Source: Candidatus Nomurabacteria bacterium RIFCSPHIGHO2_02_40_30 (lineage in GTDB: Bacteria > Patescibacteriota > Minisyncoccia > Phycocordibacterales > UBA9973). From it: a stretch of 64,000 nucleotides of DNA. Positions within the stretch are counted from its first letter, which is position 1. Each line of letters starts with the position of its first letter. The notes under the pieces are model-generated. The model saw only the letters and a program-made list of their open reading frames with translations, did no database searches and was not told the DNA's origin. Both the position numbers and the translations under genes were made by a program. The stretch lies in NCBI GenBank assembly GCA_001785445.1, contig MFTV01000010.1:101566-165565 (forward strand). The letters are read 5' to 3'. Positions 41,944-61,648 of this stretch are shown here, in pieces.

Positions 41944-43674
41944 ATGATAAGAAAAATGTTCAAAAAAAAGAATAGTGACAAACACTTTTTCGTGGAGCCC
42001 GACGAGATTTTTCTTGACTCAAAAAATTTGCAAAATTTTGACCGTCAGCAATTCGAGGGACGAATAGAAAAATCAATACCTAAAAAGAACATTTTATTTC
42101 TTGGGATTTTATTCCTGCTTTTTTCTGTAACATTTGGCAGCCGTCTGATATATCTGCAAATCCAAAAAGGGGAAGCGTACTTGAAAAGAAGCGAAAATAA
42201 TATTTTAGACAAAGTTATTATCTTTACCGAGAGAGGAATAATCTATGACAGAAATAATGTAAAGCTGGCTTGGAACAGTAGAAATTCGGACGTTGGACGT
42301 CTGAATTCCGGACGTCCAACGTCCGAATCTGAAAACATGCCTATTCGCACATACATGTCACCCGGATTTTCTCATGTATTGGGTTACGTTAGTTACCCAG
42401 CCAAAGACAAGGACGGCAACTATTGGCAAACTGAATTTATGGGTAAAGACGGCTTAGAAAAAGAATACAACGACAAAATCAAAGGAGAAAATGGCTCAAA
42501 AATAATAGAAATAAATGCGTTAAAAGAAATAAATTCCGAAAATATCATAAACATTCCAAAACGAGGGAATAACTTGGTTACAAGTATTGACTCAAAAATT
42601 CAGAAAGAATTGTTTACTTTAATTAAAAATCTGGCAGAAAATAATAACTTTACCGGTGGAGCTGGGATAATAATGGATGTCAGAAATGGAGAAATACTGA
42701 CTTCTACCAGCTTCCCAGAATATAATTCCGAAACTTTATCTCTTGGAGAAGATATATCAGCGATCAATAAGTATATAAACGATAAAAGAAAATTCTTTAT
42801 GGATAGAACTGTTTCCGGACTTTATACTCCAGGCTCGATCGTTAAGCCATTTTTCGCGCTTGGAGCTCTAACTGAAGGCATTATTGACCAATATAAAAAA
42901 ATTCTTTCGACTGGTTCCATCTCAATCCCAAACCCTTATTTTAAAGACCAAAAGACTGTTTTCAAAGACTGGAGAGTAAACGGCTGGACAGATATGAGGG
43001 AGGCTTTGGCTGTTTCTTCTGATGTTTACTTTTACTCTATTGGCGGGGGCTACGGCGACCAAAGAGGCCTTGGTATAACCAATATTGGCAAGTATGCCAG
43101 CCTCTTCGGCATTGGAGAAGCAACTGGGATTGATTTGCCGGACGAAAAAAAGGGCACCATCCCGTCTCCGCAATGGAAAATAGAAAATTTTCAAGGAGAC
43201 CCTTGGCGCATTGGAGACACTTATCATACGGCTATCGGACAATATGGATTCCAAGTTACTCCGGTAGAAATAGTCCGCGCCGTAGCGGCTATAGCAAGTT
43301 ATGGCAAAATGTTAACTCCGCATTTTATACTCAATGACAAAGAAAAGGAAAATAAAACTTCTACAGTCAACTTAAAAAAAGAATACTTTGACATTGTGCG
43401 TGAAGGAATGAGAAAAGCAGTGACAACGGGCACGGCGACAATACTGAATGTGCCCTATGTGCATGTCGCTGTGAAAACCGGAACAGCAGAGCTCGGAGTG
43501 GCTAAAAATAAAGTGAACTCTTGGGTGATGGGCTTCTTGCCGTACGAAGACCCTAAGTACGCTTTCGTGATTATTATGGAGTCGGGCCCCTCGACCGGCG
43601 GCGCTAATGCGTCTTCTGTCATGCGAGGTCTCTTGGACTGGATGTACCTTAACACACCGGAATATTTCGATTAA
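41944..43674 (+). CDS. mrdA: penicillin-binding protein 2 (class B transpeptidase)
   Basis: N-terminal anchor, SxxK (GSIVKPF), SSD(VYF) and KTGTA. Confidence 0.85.
   Translation: MIRKMFKKKNSDKHFFVEPDEIFLDSKNLQNFDRQQFEGRIEKSIPKKNILFLGILFLLFSVTFGSRLIYLQIQKGEAYLKRSENNILDKVIIFTERGIIYDRNNVKLAWNSRNSDVGRLNSGRPTSESENMPIRTYMSPGFSHVLGYVSYPAKDKDGNYWQTEFMGKDGLEKEYNDKIKGENGSKIIEINALKEINSENIINIPKRGNNLVTSIDSKIQKELFTLIKNLAENNNFTGGAGIIMDVRNGEILTSTSFPEYNSETLSLGEDISAINKYINDKRKFFMDRTVSGLYTPGSIVKPFFALGALTEGIIDQYKKILSTGSISIPNPYFKDQKTVFKDWRVNGWTDMREALAVSSDVYFYSIGGGYGDQRGLGITNIGKYASLFGIGEATGIDLPDEKKGTIPSPQWKIENFQGDPWRIGDTYHTAIGQYGFQVTPVEIVRAVAAIASYGKMLTPHFILNDKEKENKTSTVNLKKEYFDIVREGMRKAVTTGTATILNVPYVHVAVKTGTAELGVAKNKVNSWVMGFLPYEDPKYAFVIIMESGPSTGGANASSVMRGLLDWMYLNTPEYFD
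42284..42328. repeat. perfect 18-bp inverted repeat (9-nt loop) embedded in frame in mrdA
   Basis: ATTCGGACGTTGGACGTC-tgaattccg-GACGTCCAACGTCCGAAT. The GGACGT unit occurs four times. Confidence 0.9.
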
Positions 43675-59084: not shown

Positions 59085-60254
59085 ATGCCAAAAATCAATC
59101 AAGCAATAGAGAGTTTCGCCCGTATTATGGTCATCGGAATAGGCGGGTCAGGCAAGAATGCCATTAACCATATGATAAATTCTAAGGTTAAGGGTGTAAG
59201 TTTTATTTGTATGAATACCGACACGCAGGACTTGCACCACTCGCTCGCTGAGAAGAAAATTCACATAGGGAAAAATCTTACCAAGGGCTTGGGCGCCGGC
59301 ATGGACCCGGAAATCGGAAAAAAAGCCGCTGAAGAAACTAAATCGGAAATCCAAGATGTCATCAAGGGAGCTGATATGATATTCATCGCTTGTGGCATGG
59401 GCGGAGGCACGGGCACAGGCGCCGCGCCGATAGTAGCTCGCGCAGCTAAAGAACAAGGAATATTGACAGTGGCAGTTACCACCAAGCCTTTCTTTTTTGA
59501 AGGCAACCACCGAATGAAAATCGCGGAAAAAGGCATTGAGGAATTGGCCAAAGATGTGGACGCTATCATTACAATTCCAAATGACAAGTTACTGCAATTA
59601 TCTGAAAAAAATACAAATTTTAAAGACGCTTTCGCCAGATGCGATGATGTACTAAGGCAGGCCGTAGAAGGCATTTCCGACTTGATAACCACCCCCGGTA
59701 TTATAAATGTTGACTTCGCAGATATCCGAGCTATTATGTCCGATGCCGGTAGCGCGCTTATGGGTATAGGCCTTGCTTCCGGTGAAAAACGCGCTGAAAA
59801 AGCGGCGCTTCAGGCTATCAATTCTCCCCTTTTAGAAGTCTCTATAAATGGTGCCAAGGGTGTCCTCTTTGCCATTTCCGGCGGAGAAGACGTAACAATC
59901 CAAGAAATTCAAGAGGCTGCTAAAATAATCACCGAGTCAATTGACAAAGATGCGAAGGTGATATTCGGCACAATTAAGGATGAGAAATTGAAAAAGGGTG
60001 AATTAAAAGTCACAGTCATAGCTACCAGCTTCACGGCTGATGCACCTCGCAAAAGTCTTTTTACGGGAACCCTGTTAAAAGAAGAAAATGCGGCTATGGC
60101 TAAAAAGGAGATACATAACAGCATCCAGAGCGGAAGTACCAGCAGTGATTTTTTTAAGAAAGATAAAAAAGCAGAAGTGGAAGAAATAGTTATTGAAGAC
60201 GACGGAGACGACTGGAGCGCTGTTCCAGCATTTTTGAGACGTAAGAAGAATTAG
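59085..60254 (+). CDS. ftsZ: cell division protein FtsZ
   Basis: GIGGSGKNA, the tubulin signature GGGTGTGAAP, and NVDFADI. Confidence 0.95.
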   Translation: MPKINQAIESFARIMVIGIGGSGKNAINHMINSKVKGVSFICMNTDTQDLHHSLAEKKIHIGKNLTKGLGAGMDPEIGKKAAEETKSEIQDVIKGADMIFIACGMGGGTGTGAAPIVARAAKEQGILTVAVTTKPFFFEGNHRMKIAEKGIEELAKDVDAIITIPNDKLLQLSEKNTNFKDAFARCDDVLRQAVEGISDLITTPGIINVDFADIRAIMSDAGSALMGIGLASGEKRAEKAALQAINSPLLEVSINGAKGVLFAISGGEDVTIQEIQEAAKIITESIDKDAKVIFGTIKDEKLKKGELKVTVIATSFTADAPRKSLFTGTLLKEENAAMAKKEIHNSIQSGSTSSDFFKKDKKAEVEEIVIEDDGDDWSAVPAFLRRKKN

Positions 60255-60256
60255 AG

Positions 60257-60369
60257 GAAGTTTTTGAAACAAGCTTTTGTAGGGGTTTCGAGGCTGGCGA
60301 GCCGAGAACTTCAGAGTTTTTTAAGCTTCAAAAAACTCGTACCGAAAAAAGCTTTGTTTCAAAAACTTC
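60257..60369. repeat. 113-nt nested inverted-repeat element (22-bp outer stem enclosing two hairpins)
   Basis: GAAGTTTTTGAAACAAGCTTTT (60257-60278) pairs with 60347-60369, with one bulged T. Inner hairpins lie at 60288-60307 and 60314-60338. Confidence 0.8.
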
Positions 60370-60392
60370 TTTACATAGTGTATACTAAATAT

Positions 60393-61364
60393 ATGACTTA
60401 CGATTTAATTATTATCGGGGGTGGACCGGCCGGCGCGGCGGCGGCAGTTTACGCTGCTCGTAAAAGACTACAGACGCTCTTTATTACCAGCGAGTGGGGC
60501 GGGCAAAGTGTAGTCTCCGAGCAAATTTACAACTGGATTGGCACCACTTCCCTCTCGGGAAATGAATTAGCAGAAAATTTTAAAAAGCATGTATTGGCAA
60601 ATGCCATAGGTACTGAAAACCTGAAAGAGGCTGAAGATTTGGGCTCTACGCTTTTAGTAAAAGAAGGTGAAAAAGTAATTTCTCTCACAAGGACAGTCCT
60701 TGAAAATTCCTTTGAAGTTACAACAGAAAATGGCGAGAAATTTTTAGCTAAGACAATTCTAATAACTAGCGGCAGCGGTAGAAGAAAACTTGAGGCAAAG
60801 AATGCCGACAGACTAGAACATAAAGGACTCACTTACTGCGCCTCTTGCGACGGGCCTCTTTTTACCGGTCAGGATGTCGCGGTAGTGGGCGGCGGGAACG
60901 CTGGGTTTGAAACTGCTGCCCAGCTTCTGGCCTATTGTAAATCCGTAACCCTTCTGCACCGTAGTGAGTCTTTTGATAAAGCTGATGAAATTACCGTTGA
61001 TAAAGTTTTGAAAAACCCAAAAATGAAAGCGGTAAAAAATGTGGAAATTTTGGAAATACAAGGCGATAAATTTGTCGAAGGAATAGTATATAAAGACAGA
61101 GCTACCAGCCAAGAAACAGAATTGAAGGTCTCCGGTATTTTCGTGGAAATCGGGCAAATTCCAAATACTAACTTTGTGAAAGATTTGGTTCCGCTTGACG
61201 AAATCGGACGTATAAAAATAAATCCGTTAAATCAAAAAACTTTAGTCCCCGGCATCTGGGCTGCCGGCGACTGCACTGATGTGCTCTATCATCAAAACAA
61301 CATCGCCGCCGGTGATGCCGTCCGCGCCCTCGAAGATATTTATTTGGCAATTCATACTAAATAG
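60393..61364 (+). CDS. trxB: thioredoxin-disulfide reductase
   Basis: Start trimmed to MTYDLIIIGGGPAG. Redox motif CASCDG and a second Rossmann motif VVGGGNAG. Confidence 0.9.
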   Translation: MTYDLIIIGGGPAGAAAAVYAARKRLQTLFITSEWGGQSVVSEQIYNWIGTTSLSGNELAENFKKHVLANAIGTENLKEAEDLGSTLLVKEGEKVISLTRTVLENSFEVTTENGEKFLAKTILITSGSGRRKLEAKNADRLEHKGLTYCASCDGPLFTGQDVAVVGGGNAGFETAAQLLAYCKSVTLLHRSESFDKADEITVDKVLKNPKMKAVKNVEILEIQGDKFVEGIVYKDRATSQETELKVSGIFVEIGQIPNTNFVKDLVPLDEIGRIKINPLNQKTLVPGIWAAGDCTDVLYHQNNIAAGDAVRALEDIYLAIHTK

Positions 61365-61396
61365 TTACGTAATCTATTACGTAATACATTACGTAA
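61365..61396. promoter_or_regulatory. three TTACGTAA octamers spaced by 4 nt
   Basis: TTACGTAA-tcta-TTACGTAA-taca-TTACGTAA-CCAA. Same 32-nt architecture as 45898-45929. Confidence 0.7.
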
Positions 61397-61420
61397 CCAA
61401 ATACTTTTCCACAGATTTAA

Positions 61421-61448
61421 TTGACAGGTTTAGATAAAAGCATAAACT
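61421..61448 (+). promoter_or_regulatory. promoter for the riboswitch-led operon
   Basis: TTGACA-N16-TAAACT. Confidence 0.55.
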
Positions 61449-61469
61449 TAGTATGTTCCTTTAATAATT

Positions 61470-61648
61470 TAAAAGAAGTGATTGGGGAAACTGGTTAGAT
61501 TCCAGTACAGTGCCGCTACGGTAAGCCCACGACTTTGTGTCGGGGACAAGTCCGATTACCAATCATTTTTGTTTTTCCCGAGCAGGATATCCTCTTTCGT
61601 TTTTTTACGAAAAAGACTGTAAATTCTGCCCGCAGCAGGATTTTTTTT
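61470..61648 (+). promoter_or_regulatory. cobalamin riboswitch (aptamer plus SD-sequestering / terminator-like hairpin)
   Basis: P1 stem TGATTGG/CCAATCA. Core GGGAAACTGGTTAGATTCCAGTACAGTGCCGCTACGGTAAG. B12-box-like AAGTCCGATTACC. Hairpin AATTCTG/CAGGATT, then T8 directly before the ATG. Confidence 0.7.

Follow-up and report, generated by a model that had tools for sequence, protein, structure and literature searches.

The spacer between ftsZ and trxB in Candidatus Nomurabacteria bacterium RIFCSPHIGHO2_02_40_30 (assembly GCA_001785445.1, contig MFTV01000010.1) carries a 113-nt inverted-repeat element at positions 60257–60369 of the window, that is, of the whole 64,000-nt stretch analysed here (contig positions 101,566–165,565, forward strand). 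The question raised by this locus is what kind of element it is. A first-pass annotation had offered three answers: a structured small RNA, an elaborate terminator or insulator, or something resembling a MITE (a transposable element of the miniature inverted-repeat kind). The last was supported by many copies at unrelated sites, in both orientations and within genes, whereas a small RNA and a dedicated terminator or insulator were not. We consider, with a probability of about 78%, that the window element is one copy of a dispersed, non-coding palindromic repeat family of Paceibacteria, selfish and non-autonomous, of the type represented by Rickettsia palindromic elements (RPEs), repetitive extragenic palindromic sequences (REPs) and MITEs. 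A selfish repeat was preferred over an RNA gene or a terminator because of its presence and absence among relatives, the unrelated sites, both orientations, several reading frames, near-identical copies and a chimeric assembly. The lack of any match in Rfam, in phage and plasmid collections or in viral contigs scanned with two subfamily cores also speaks for this reading.

The window element and its family

The three helices of the element were confirmed in the sequence at 60257–60369. The RNAfold minimum-energy fold of the 113 nt alone was a three-way junction of −43.1 kcal/mol, compared with −26.0 ± 3.7 kcal/mol for shuffled sequences (z = −4.6; 0/200 equally stable), and with flanks included the fold reached −48.6 kcal/mol (z = −6.75 against shuffles). 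The complementary strand also folded, more weakly (−38.9 kcal/mol). The 22-nt arm had no second match in the window at up to three mismatches, with 0 expected from shuffles. On the strength of the z-scores, the shuffles and the unmatched arm, the fold is far beyond chance.

All parts are given on the forward strand. The outer stem (P1) pairs GAAGTTTTTGAAACAAGCTTTT (60257–60278) with 60347–60369 over 22 bp, with a single extra T within the run 60353–60355 of the 3′ arm; this bulge, 7–8 bp below the junction, occupies a site conserved in subfamily i, the subfamily of the window copy. Comparison of the arms of 11 subfamily-i copies showed that the inner 8 nt of the 5′ arm (AAGCTTTT) are like those of the other copies and that the outer part is copy-specific. 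The 22-bp pairing claimed earlier stands, but “terminal inverted repeats” describes it poorly, since the arms are mostly copy-specific and the part conserved in the family is the interior. That interior is a 68-nt core (60279–60346), recognised by a covariance model (R1) and made up of the junction, P1b (G60282–G60283 paired with C60342–C60343), P2 and P3. The P2 hairpin (60284–60310) was established from the fold, from paired stems across 30 copies and from covariation; its lower stem has a bulged U and tandem G.A at 60290–91/60304–05, and its upper stem GGCT/AGCC (60292–95/60300–03) closes a GGCG loop (60296–99). The GC-rich hairpin described in the first-pass annotation at 60288–60307 was thus correctly located and has that loop, but TCGAGGCT/AGCCGAGA are not fully complementary, the middle GA/GA forming the tandem G.A mismatch. 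The P3 hairpin, GAGTTTTTT-AAGCTTC-AAAAAACTC (60314–60338), has the perfect 9-bp stem reported for it and is supported by sequence, fold and compensatory changes among relatives. It is the AT-rich version found in subfamily i, and its loop holds an AGC common to most subfamilies. AAGCTT occurs three times (60271, 60323 and 60349), as described.

Further copies were found in other genomes and at other sites. Within ~1.5 Mb of related loci (designated here by L numbers), at least 45 members of the family were counted, each about 95–150 bp long; their conserved core of ~65 nt is closed by a long and nearly perfect outer stem that differs between copies. R1, built on the 68-nt core from six copies, scored the window at 94.2 bits (E = 2.9e-21), its sole match in 64 kb, and six copies, among them one in L018, at 83–97 bits; it also gave strong matches elsewhere, where the cores were 82–98% identical. 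A blastn census with 17 cores recovered 34 copies in related loci. A pattern scan for P2 gave 39 matches versus 3 in shuffled sequence, and a stricter P2 + P3 pattern gave 21 matches and 0 in 365 kb of control loci, the latter being too restrictive as a census. A single family-wide covariance model was unsuitable because MAFFT and R1 misaligned the distant subfamilies, so R1 was kept for subfamily i, and blastn and patterns were used for the others. A scan of a metagenome collection with a 20-nt arm returned 66 loci, all chance one-arm matches; the collection does not contain this organism, and the scan is no valid test of copy number.

Several genomes carry more than one copy, with 2–4 copies within 13–21 kb (L012, L077, L150, L157, L066 with four copies, L051 and L068). 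The two L077 copies are ~93% identical including the arms, and differ by a compensatory change. At least three subfamilies were distinguished: (i) with an AT-rich P3, as in the window; (ii) with a GC-rich P3; and (iii) with a CAGCAG-loop P3; further variants exist. Common to all is the P2 signature A-[4–5 bp stem]-GNCG-[stem]-GAG, in which the stem takes 12 different sequences, all paired, across 30 copies. Of the two strands, the “forward” one gives the more stable fold in 33 of 38 copies, by a mean of 5 kcal/mol, a hint that the form in which one strand is read is folded and single-stranded.

Sites, reading frames and inversion

Among 80 ftsZ loci compared from other Paceibacteria species, 73 have trxB downstream of ftsZ. 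The spacer between these two genes is a hot spot, occupied in the window and 11 relatives (12 of ~74 genomes) and in both orientations. Three relatives have the orientation of the window (L012, L013 and L011), six have the opposite one (L008, L029, L041, L055, L072 and L077), and two have a pair of opposed copies side by side (L051 11200–11385 and L068 11195–11395). Of the 14 copies in this spacer, 8 are antisense to both neighbours, a split of about 50:50. The length of the spacer varies from 3 nt to >1 kb among relatives, and empty spacers of 14–45 nt were found in L004, L010, L017, L020, L023, L024, L027 and L034. Since close relatives (FtsZ 83–87% identical) have only such a short spacer, the element is dispensable at this site. 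An identical FtsZ is encoded on LBXB01000001.1 of GCA_000995205.1, a groundwater candidate phyla radiation (CPR) genome, and in many samples, with the element present every time.

Other structured DNA also occupies this spacer: CTAG-rich repeats (TAGGTTCTAGCTTCTAGG...) in L015, L022, L050, L042, L043 and L048, and simple A-run/hairpin/T-run terminators in L025, L033, L035, L036 and L038. The spacer is a general dumping ground for structured DNA.

Elsewhere, the L018 copy lies in the mraZ–rsmH spacer, antisense to both genes, and a single 21-kb stretch holds one copy in the purQ–purF spacer and another within a DUF2914 gene. A copy was found at the 5′ end of miaA, matching N-terminal “extensions” of MiaA in the protein search described below, and others adjoin tRNA genes. 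As in the window, intergenic copies often stand directly past a stop codon.

Copies also lie within at least seven genes whose reading frame stays open: tsaD, def, uvrB, uvrC, uvrD, an rluA-type gene and the DUF2914 gene. Two matches to R1 fell inside tsaD. Among the 21 tsaD genes in the loci, the gap between the YPGGP and LPRP motifs is 25–30 residues in 12, which represent empty sites, and 36–64 residues in nine; a clear in-frame three-way junction was present in L012, L017, L024, L027 and L083. The 36-residue TsaD insert replaces residues 190–192 of a solved TsaD (8iey_A), between two conserved blocks. The L083 element is read in another frame than the other tsaD copies, and because the element is read in different frames, its conservation lies in the nucleotides and not in the peptide.

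The concatenated translations of the elements were used as queries against a collection of 5.8 billion proteins, and a second search was made with the other frames and the reverse strand. The first search returned ~30 TsaD clusters and the long TrxB call of the window, together with in-frame inserts in peptide deformylase, a UvrD-type helicase, UvrB and a DUF2914 membrane protein. The second found the element in reverse orientation at the same tsaD site in eight more clusters, and also in UvrC, an RluA-type pseudouridine synthase and another UvrD. In total, ~40 TsaD clusters contain an element-encoded peptide. Nucleotide sequences confirmed the fold inside the DUF2914 gene, inside def and in the purQ–purF spacer. 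The same element nucleotides are read in at least four frames or orientations, adding about 30–45 residues to the host proteins; an example of a peptide spanning the TsaD or Def insert is SQADGPRGSAPRARGDSDPE. Excision in the manner of an intron was rejected, as every copy within a gene leaves the frame open and spans a multiple of three nucleotides. One protein (P0027, from a 9.4-kb European Nucleotide Archive contig) starts with the N-terminal part of TsaD, continues through the element peptide and finishes with a UvrD helicase's C-terminal part, most likely because the assembly was joined across two copies of the repeat.

All 11 subfamily-i copies have similar sequence in the top ~8 bp of their outer stems, whereas the remaining 6–16 bp are a different inverted repeat in each. 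No direct target-site duplication flanks any of these 11; instead, the flanks continue the inverted repeat. In subfamilies ii and iii the arms are wholly copy-specific over 14–25 bp, even within genes. Conserved terminal inverted repeats are therefore not shared across subfamilies and are limited to the inner ~8 bp within subfamily i. The 3′ arm of the L017 copy extends into tsaD's conserved LP codons, of which the 5′ arm holds the mirror image, and the arms of L012 and L024 show compensatory differences. At the tsaD site, L024 19–134 is the reverse complement of L160 19–134 (91% over 116 nt) and of L158, all three within an equally long 144-nt tsaD segment. Reverse-complementary segments of the same length at the same site mean that the whole palindrome has been flipped in place, presumably by recombination between the element arms. 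In-place inversion also accounts for the mixed orientation at ftsZ–trxB. An invertible promoter switch (inverton) has inverted repeats around a promoter and a site-specific recombinase nearby; the segment inverted here between genomes measures only ~70–116 bp, with no promoter-like site inside it and no recombinase adjoining it.

Known repeats and competing explanations

Kinship with the Rickettsia RPEs is a functional analogy only, and would be closest to the RPE-1 type of ~100–150 bp. As with RPEs, the repeats are small, non-coding palindromes with no transposase of their own, fall into several sequence families per clade, lie both between genes and in frame within housekeeping genes to which they add peptide, and occur in hosts with small, reduced genomes. 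In-frame insertion is a habit of RPEs and REPs, with hosts such as uvrA/B/D, polA and truB (PMC3733652; PMC10969869). DNA-repair and tRNA/rRNA-modification genes are among the hosts in both cases (PMC10969869; PMC3733652), represented here by tsaD, def, uvrB/C/D, the rluA-type gene and the DUF2914 gene. The present family differs in belonging to another phylum, and in being read in at least four frames or orientations where RPEs are said to encode a conserved peptide. It differs also in its conserved internal two-hairpin core, its long copy-specific arms and its documented inversion in place.

REPs tagged with GTAG or CGTC are mobilised by REP-associated tyrosine transposases (RAYTs). No RAYT gene was seen in the ~1.5 Mb of loci, which cover 10–20 kb per genome; CGTC-type REPs are likewise without a known transposase (PMC3733652). 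With REPs, bacterial interspersed mosaic elements (BIMEs) and REPINs, the family shares palindromes defined by structure, a position mostly just downstream of genes and sometimes within them, and stems that vary by compensatory change. REPs are also often paired in opposite orientation, as are the L051 and L068 copies. A REP, however, is a single hairpin of 20–40 nt with an unpaired terminal GTAG or CGTC tag (PMC3733652), whereas the unit here is a three-way junction of 95–150 nt. GTAG (60279–60282) occurs in the window copy only, other copies having GAAA, GAAG or AAAG, and CGTC occurs only as the complement of the P2 loop.

MITEs such as Correia/NEMIS, ERIC, RUP and Nezha resemble the family in size, in the absence of coding capacity, in inverted-repeat ends that can pair into a long hairpin and in several copies per genome, as well as in insertion near or in genes with occasional in-frame fusions (PMC10969869). 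They have conserved terminal inverted repeats and direct target duplications, in contrast to the copy-specific termini and the lack of duplications in 11 copies here; because both features are missing, the element is not a classical MITE. No parent insertion sequence with the same ends was found in the fetched loci. Between the inverted L066 copies, where an autonomous partner might have lain, there were ordinary genes only. With its structured interior conserved and its perfect arms variable, the element reverses the layout of both MITEs and REPs.

Flip-flop inversion of hairpin loops between inverted repeats is well known in plastid intergenic spacers, and there too a stretch between inverted repeats occurs in both orientations at one site of related genomes, without change of length. 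That is a process and not an element family, and here it is also seen in essential coding sequence with the frame open both ways. Integron attC sites resemble the element in that the fold of one strand defines the site, with bulged bases and sometimes a branched tip, but their outer R/L boxes are conserved and the tip is variable, opposite to the arrangement here. No GTTRRRY core site was seen by eye in the window element, and its surroundings showed neither a cassette array nor an integrase. Hammerhead and other small ribozymes, SRP RNA, 5S rRNA, Y RNA, kink-turns, retron msr/msd and integron attC were set aside, as their junction strands and loops did not fit (by eye, against their consensus features) and Rfam was silent.

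As a selfish repeat, the element would be spread by a trans-acting enzyme encoded elsewhere that reads the core (P2) in its folded state, on single-stranded DNA or on RNA. The copy-specific arms may have been made or kept complementary by fold-back, hairpin-templated copying of the flanking DNA; such template switching would mimic “covariation” without selection. The element survives in essential genes wherever the reading frame stays open, and is flipped in place, presumably through recombination between its own arms. As a side effect, the stem-loop may stabilise or end the ftsZ transcript.

Several points weigh against a selfish repeat. Mobility is deduced from distribution, as no transposase or mobilising gene was found near any copy in the fetched loci. 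Two classical MITE features, target duplication and family-wide terminal repeats, are lacking, and only one copy lies within the 64-kb window. Even very divergent subfamilies share the P2 signature, and compensatory changes preserve the stems of orthologous copies, also in genes, which could equally reflect a host function. The covariation in P2, itself a point in favour (all 4 pairs, with 30 cells altered on both sides and 0/500 shuffles reaching the observed score), was counted in a set of which part was selected by a pattern that demanded pairing. Finally, the repeated occupancy of the same two sites could stem from ancient insertion and vertical descent rather than from repeated targeting.

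A bolder version of mobility, which we regard as possible though doubtful, is that the family represents a new class of structure-guided mobile DNA in CPR bacteria, in which a putative enzyme reads the folded core and insertion leaves no direct duplication but a long, copy-specific inverted duplication of the flank. The core would be inserted at preferred sites, including one fixed position in tsaD, on single-stranded DNA or RNA, and the palindromes so formed would invert where they stand and equip essential proteins with disordered loops. For REPs, MITEs or RPEs, such an inverted duplication of the flank on insertion has not been described.

That the element serves its host appears improbable. 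It would then be a domesticated REP-like module whose P2/P3 core is the putative binding site (RNA, single-stranded DNA or cruciform DNA) of a conserved Paceibacteria protein, persisting through usefulness: it might shield upstream mRNA from 3′ exonucleases, organise supercoiling or serve to mark sites. The retention of A-[stem]-GNCG-[stem]-GAG as the one feature of all subfamilies speaks for this, as do the compensatory changes that keep the stems of orthologous copies even inside tsaD, the better fold of the “forward” strand, and the frequent position right after a stop codon, from which such action has been proposed for REPs (PMC3733652). A role at the RNA level would nevertheless be lost in half of the cases, given the even split of orientations at ftsZ–trxB and the inversion at tsaD. 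Close relatives are without the element at every site, insertion into essential coding sequences is hard to see as a benefit, and no candidate binding protein is known.

The strong and highly non-random fold, the covariation in P2 and P3, and the G.U pairs and tandem G.A that favour one strand would all suit an RNA folded as a three-way junction, be it the product of a free-standing small RNA gene or a cis-regulator of trxB. We judge this very unlikely. Rfam at gathering thresholds returned only tRNAs and a cobalamin riboswitch from the window and eight member loci, and a permissive scan (to E = 10) of 60100–60500 gave only noise far below threshold, so the element matched no RNA family at either level. 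No promoter-like site was found upstream of the element and no terminator downstream. Copies stand antisense to both neighbours in the 8 of 14 cases noted above and at mraZ–rsmH, close relatives do without the element, and residence inside at least seven protein-coding genes with an open frame would be needless for an RNA gene.

An elaborate intrinsic terminator or insulator, evolved in place between ftsZ and trxB transcription, is slightly harder still to sustain. The element does separate the ftsZ stop codon from the trxB promoter box, and simple terminators occur in the same spacer of the five relatives listed above. A terminator scan, however, found none at 60257–60380, where the stem has an AT-rich base and TTTAC, instead of a U-tract, comes after the 3′ arm. 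The same core recurs at many unrelated sites and within genes, its orientation flips, and relatives manage with spacers of 14–45 nt.

The idea that the element is coding, with TrxB starting at TTG 60264 and carrying a 43-residue N-terminal extension, can practically be dismissed: the frame is open and in phase with trxB, but TrxB homology in 73 relatives starts at residue 1 of the ATG-60393 protein behind quite different upstream DNA, and other copies are read in other frames or on the other strand.

Flanking features and significance

Upstream, ftsZ (59085–60254, forward strand; ORF with Pfam Tubulin and FtsZ_C domains) ends in TAG at 60252–60254, and the element begins 2 nt beyond this stop codon. 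Downstream, the true start of trxB (thioredoxin reductase; 60393–61364, forward strand) is ATG 60393, as in the NCBI call of 323 aa. Positions 60264–60392 on the same strand form a spurious TTG-started extension of the trxB ORF, which is the element translated in its frame “B”: the frame is open through the element, adds 43 codons, and was used in the Joint Genome Institute (JGI) annotation of the same contig to give a 366-aa TrxB (P0003). In 73/73 relatives, tblastn homology to the ATG-60393 protein starts at its residue 1 (≤3). Because this holds despite varied upstream DNA, the TTG-60264 frame is an artefact; the start at ATG 60393 preferred in the first-pass annotation is correct and the extension is not conserved. 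The TATACT box (60381–60386) lies outside the element, so that box and start codon are left intact, and relatives without the element have a conserved TAGTGTATAAT-type box just upstream of the trxB ATG. In this clade the TAGTGTATAAT/TATACT box ends 6–8 nt before the ATG (window 60376–60395; L004, L020, L023, L024, L027 and L034) and the same starts have no Shine-Dalgarno sequence; the trxB mRNA is probably leaderless or nearly so.

Some other features were noted nearby. A cobalamin riboswitch (RF00174, 36.6 bits against a gathering score of 31.5) lies downstream of trxB at 61437–61581 on the forward strand; it precedes a DUF4430 gene and a large gene that has a weak cobalamin-binding match, and a promoter-like TTGACA-16-TAAACT is found at 61421–61448. 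An overlapping repeat right after the trxB stop codon (61364–61397) and a perfect 32-nt palindrome (45898–45929; TTACATAATACATTAC|GTAATGTATTATGTAA) share the motif (T)ATTACGTAAT, which has 6 matches versus 1.75 expected. These palindromes could represent an operator or else a second small repeat. At 42284–42328 lies a perfect inverted repeat, ATTCGGACGTTGGACGTC ... GACGTCCAACGTCCGAAT, whose 18-bp arms are 9 nt apart. Just past the end of the window, L001 15471–21170 contains a HinfI-type restriction-modification pair, a LexA-like repressor, a TIR-domain gene with a caspase-like gene and a large serine recombinase, and looks like a defence or mobile island. On a 672-kb Pacebacteria contig, a Phage_CRI (rolling-circle replication initiator) gene (L150 1–222) lies ~10 kb from two element copies, with no link shown.

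Paceibacteria are ultra-small bacteria of the CPR, and CPR/Patescibacteria genomes are usually described as tiny and streamlined. We found no description of MITE-, REP- or RPE-type repeats in CPR/Patescibacteria in the literature, and the family is previously undescribed. For the annotation of metagenome-assembled genomes, it gives rise to false N-terminal extensions (the 366-aa TrxB, MiaA), to inserts of 30–45 residues that mimic lineage-specific protein features, and to chimeric assemblies across the repeat such as P0027. The two hot spots provide ready natural experiments and strain markers. A structured core with copy-specific perfect arms, no target duplication and inversion suggests a mode of spread or maintenance unlike that of classical MITEs. 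Widespread in Paceibacteria and invading essential genes (tsaD, def and uvrBCD), the family extends Rickettsia-like “selfish DNA in protein-coding genes” to a very distant lineage with reduced genomes.

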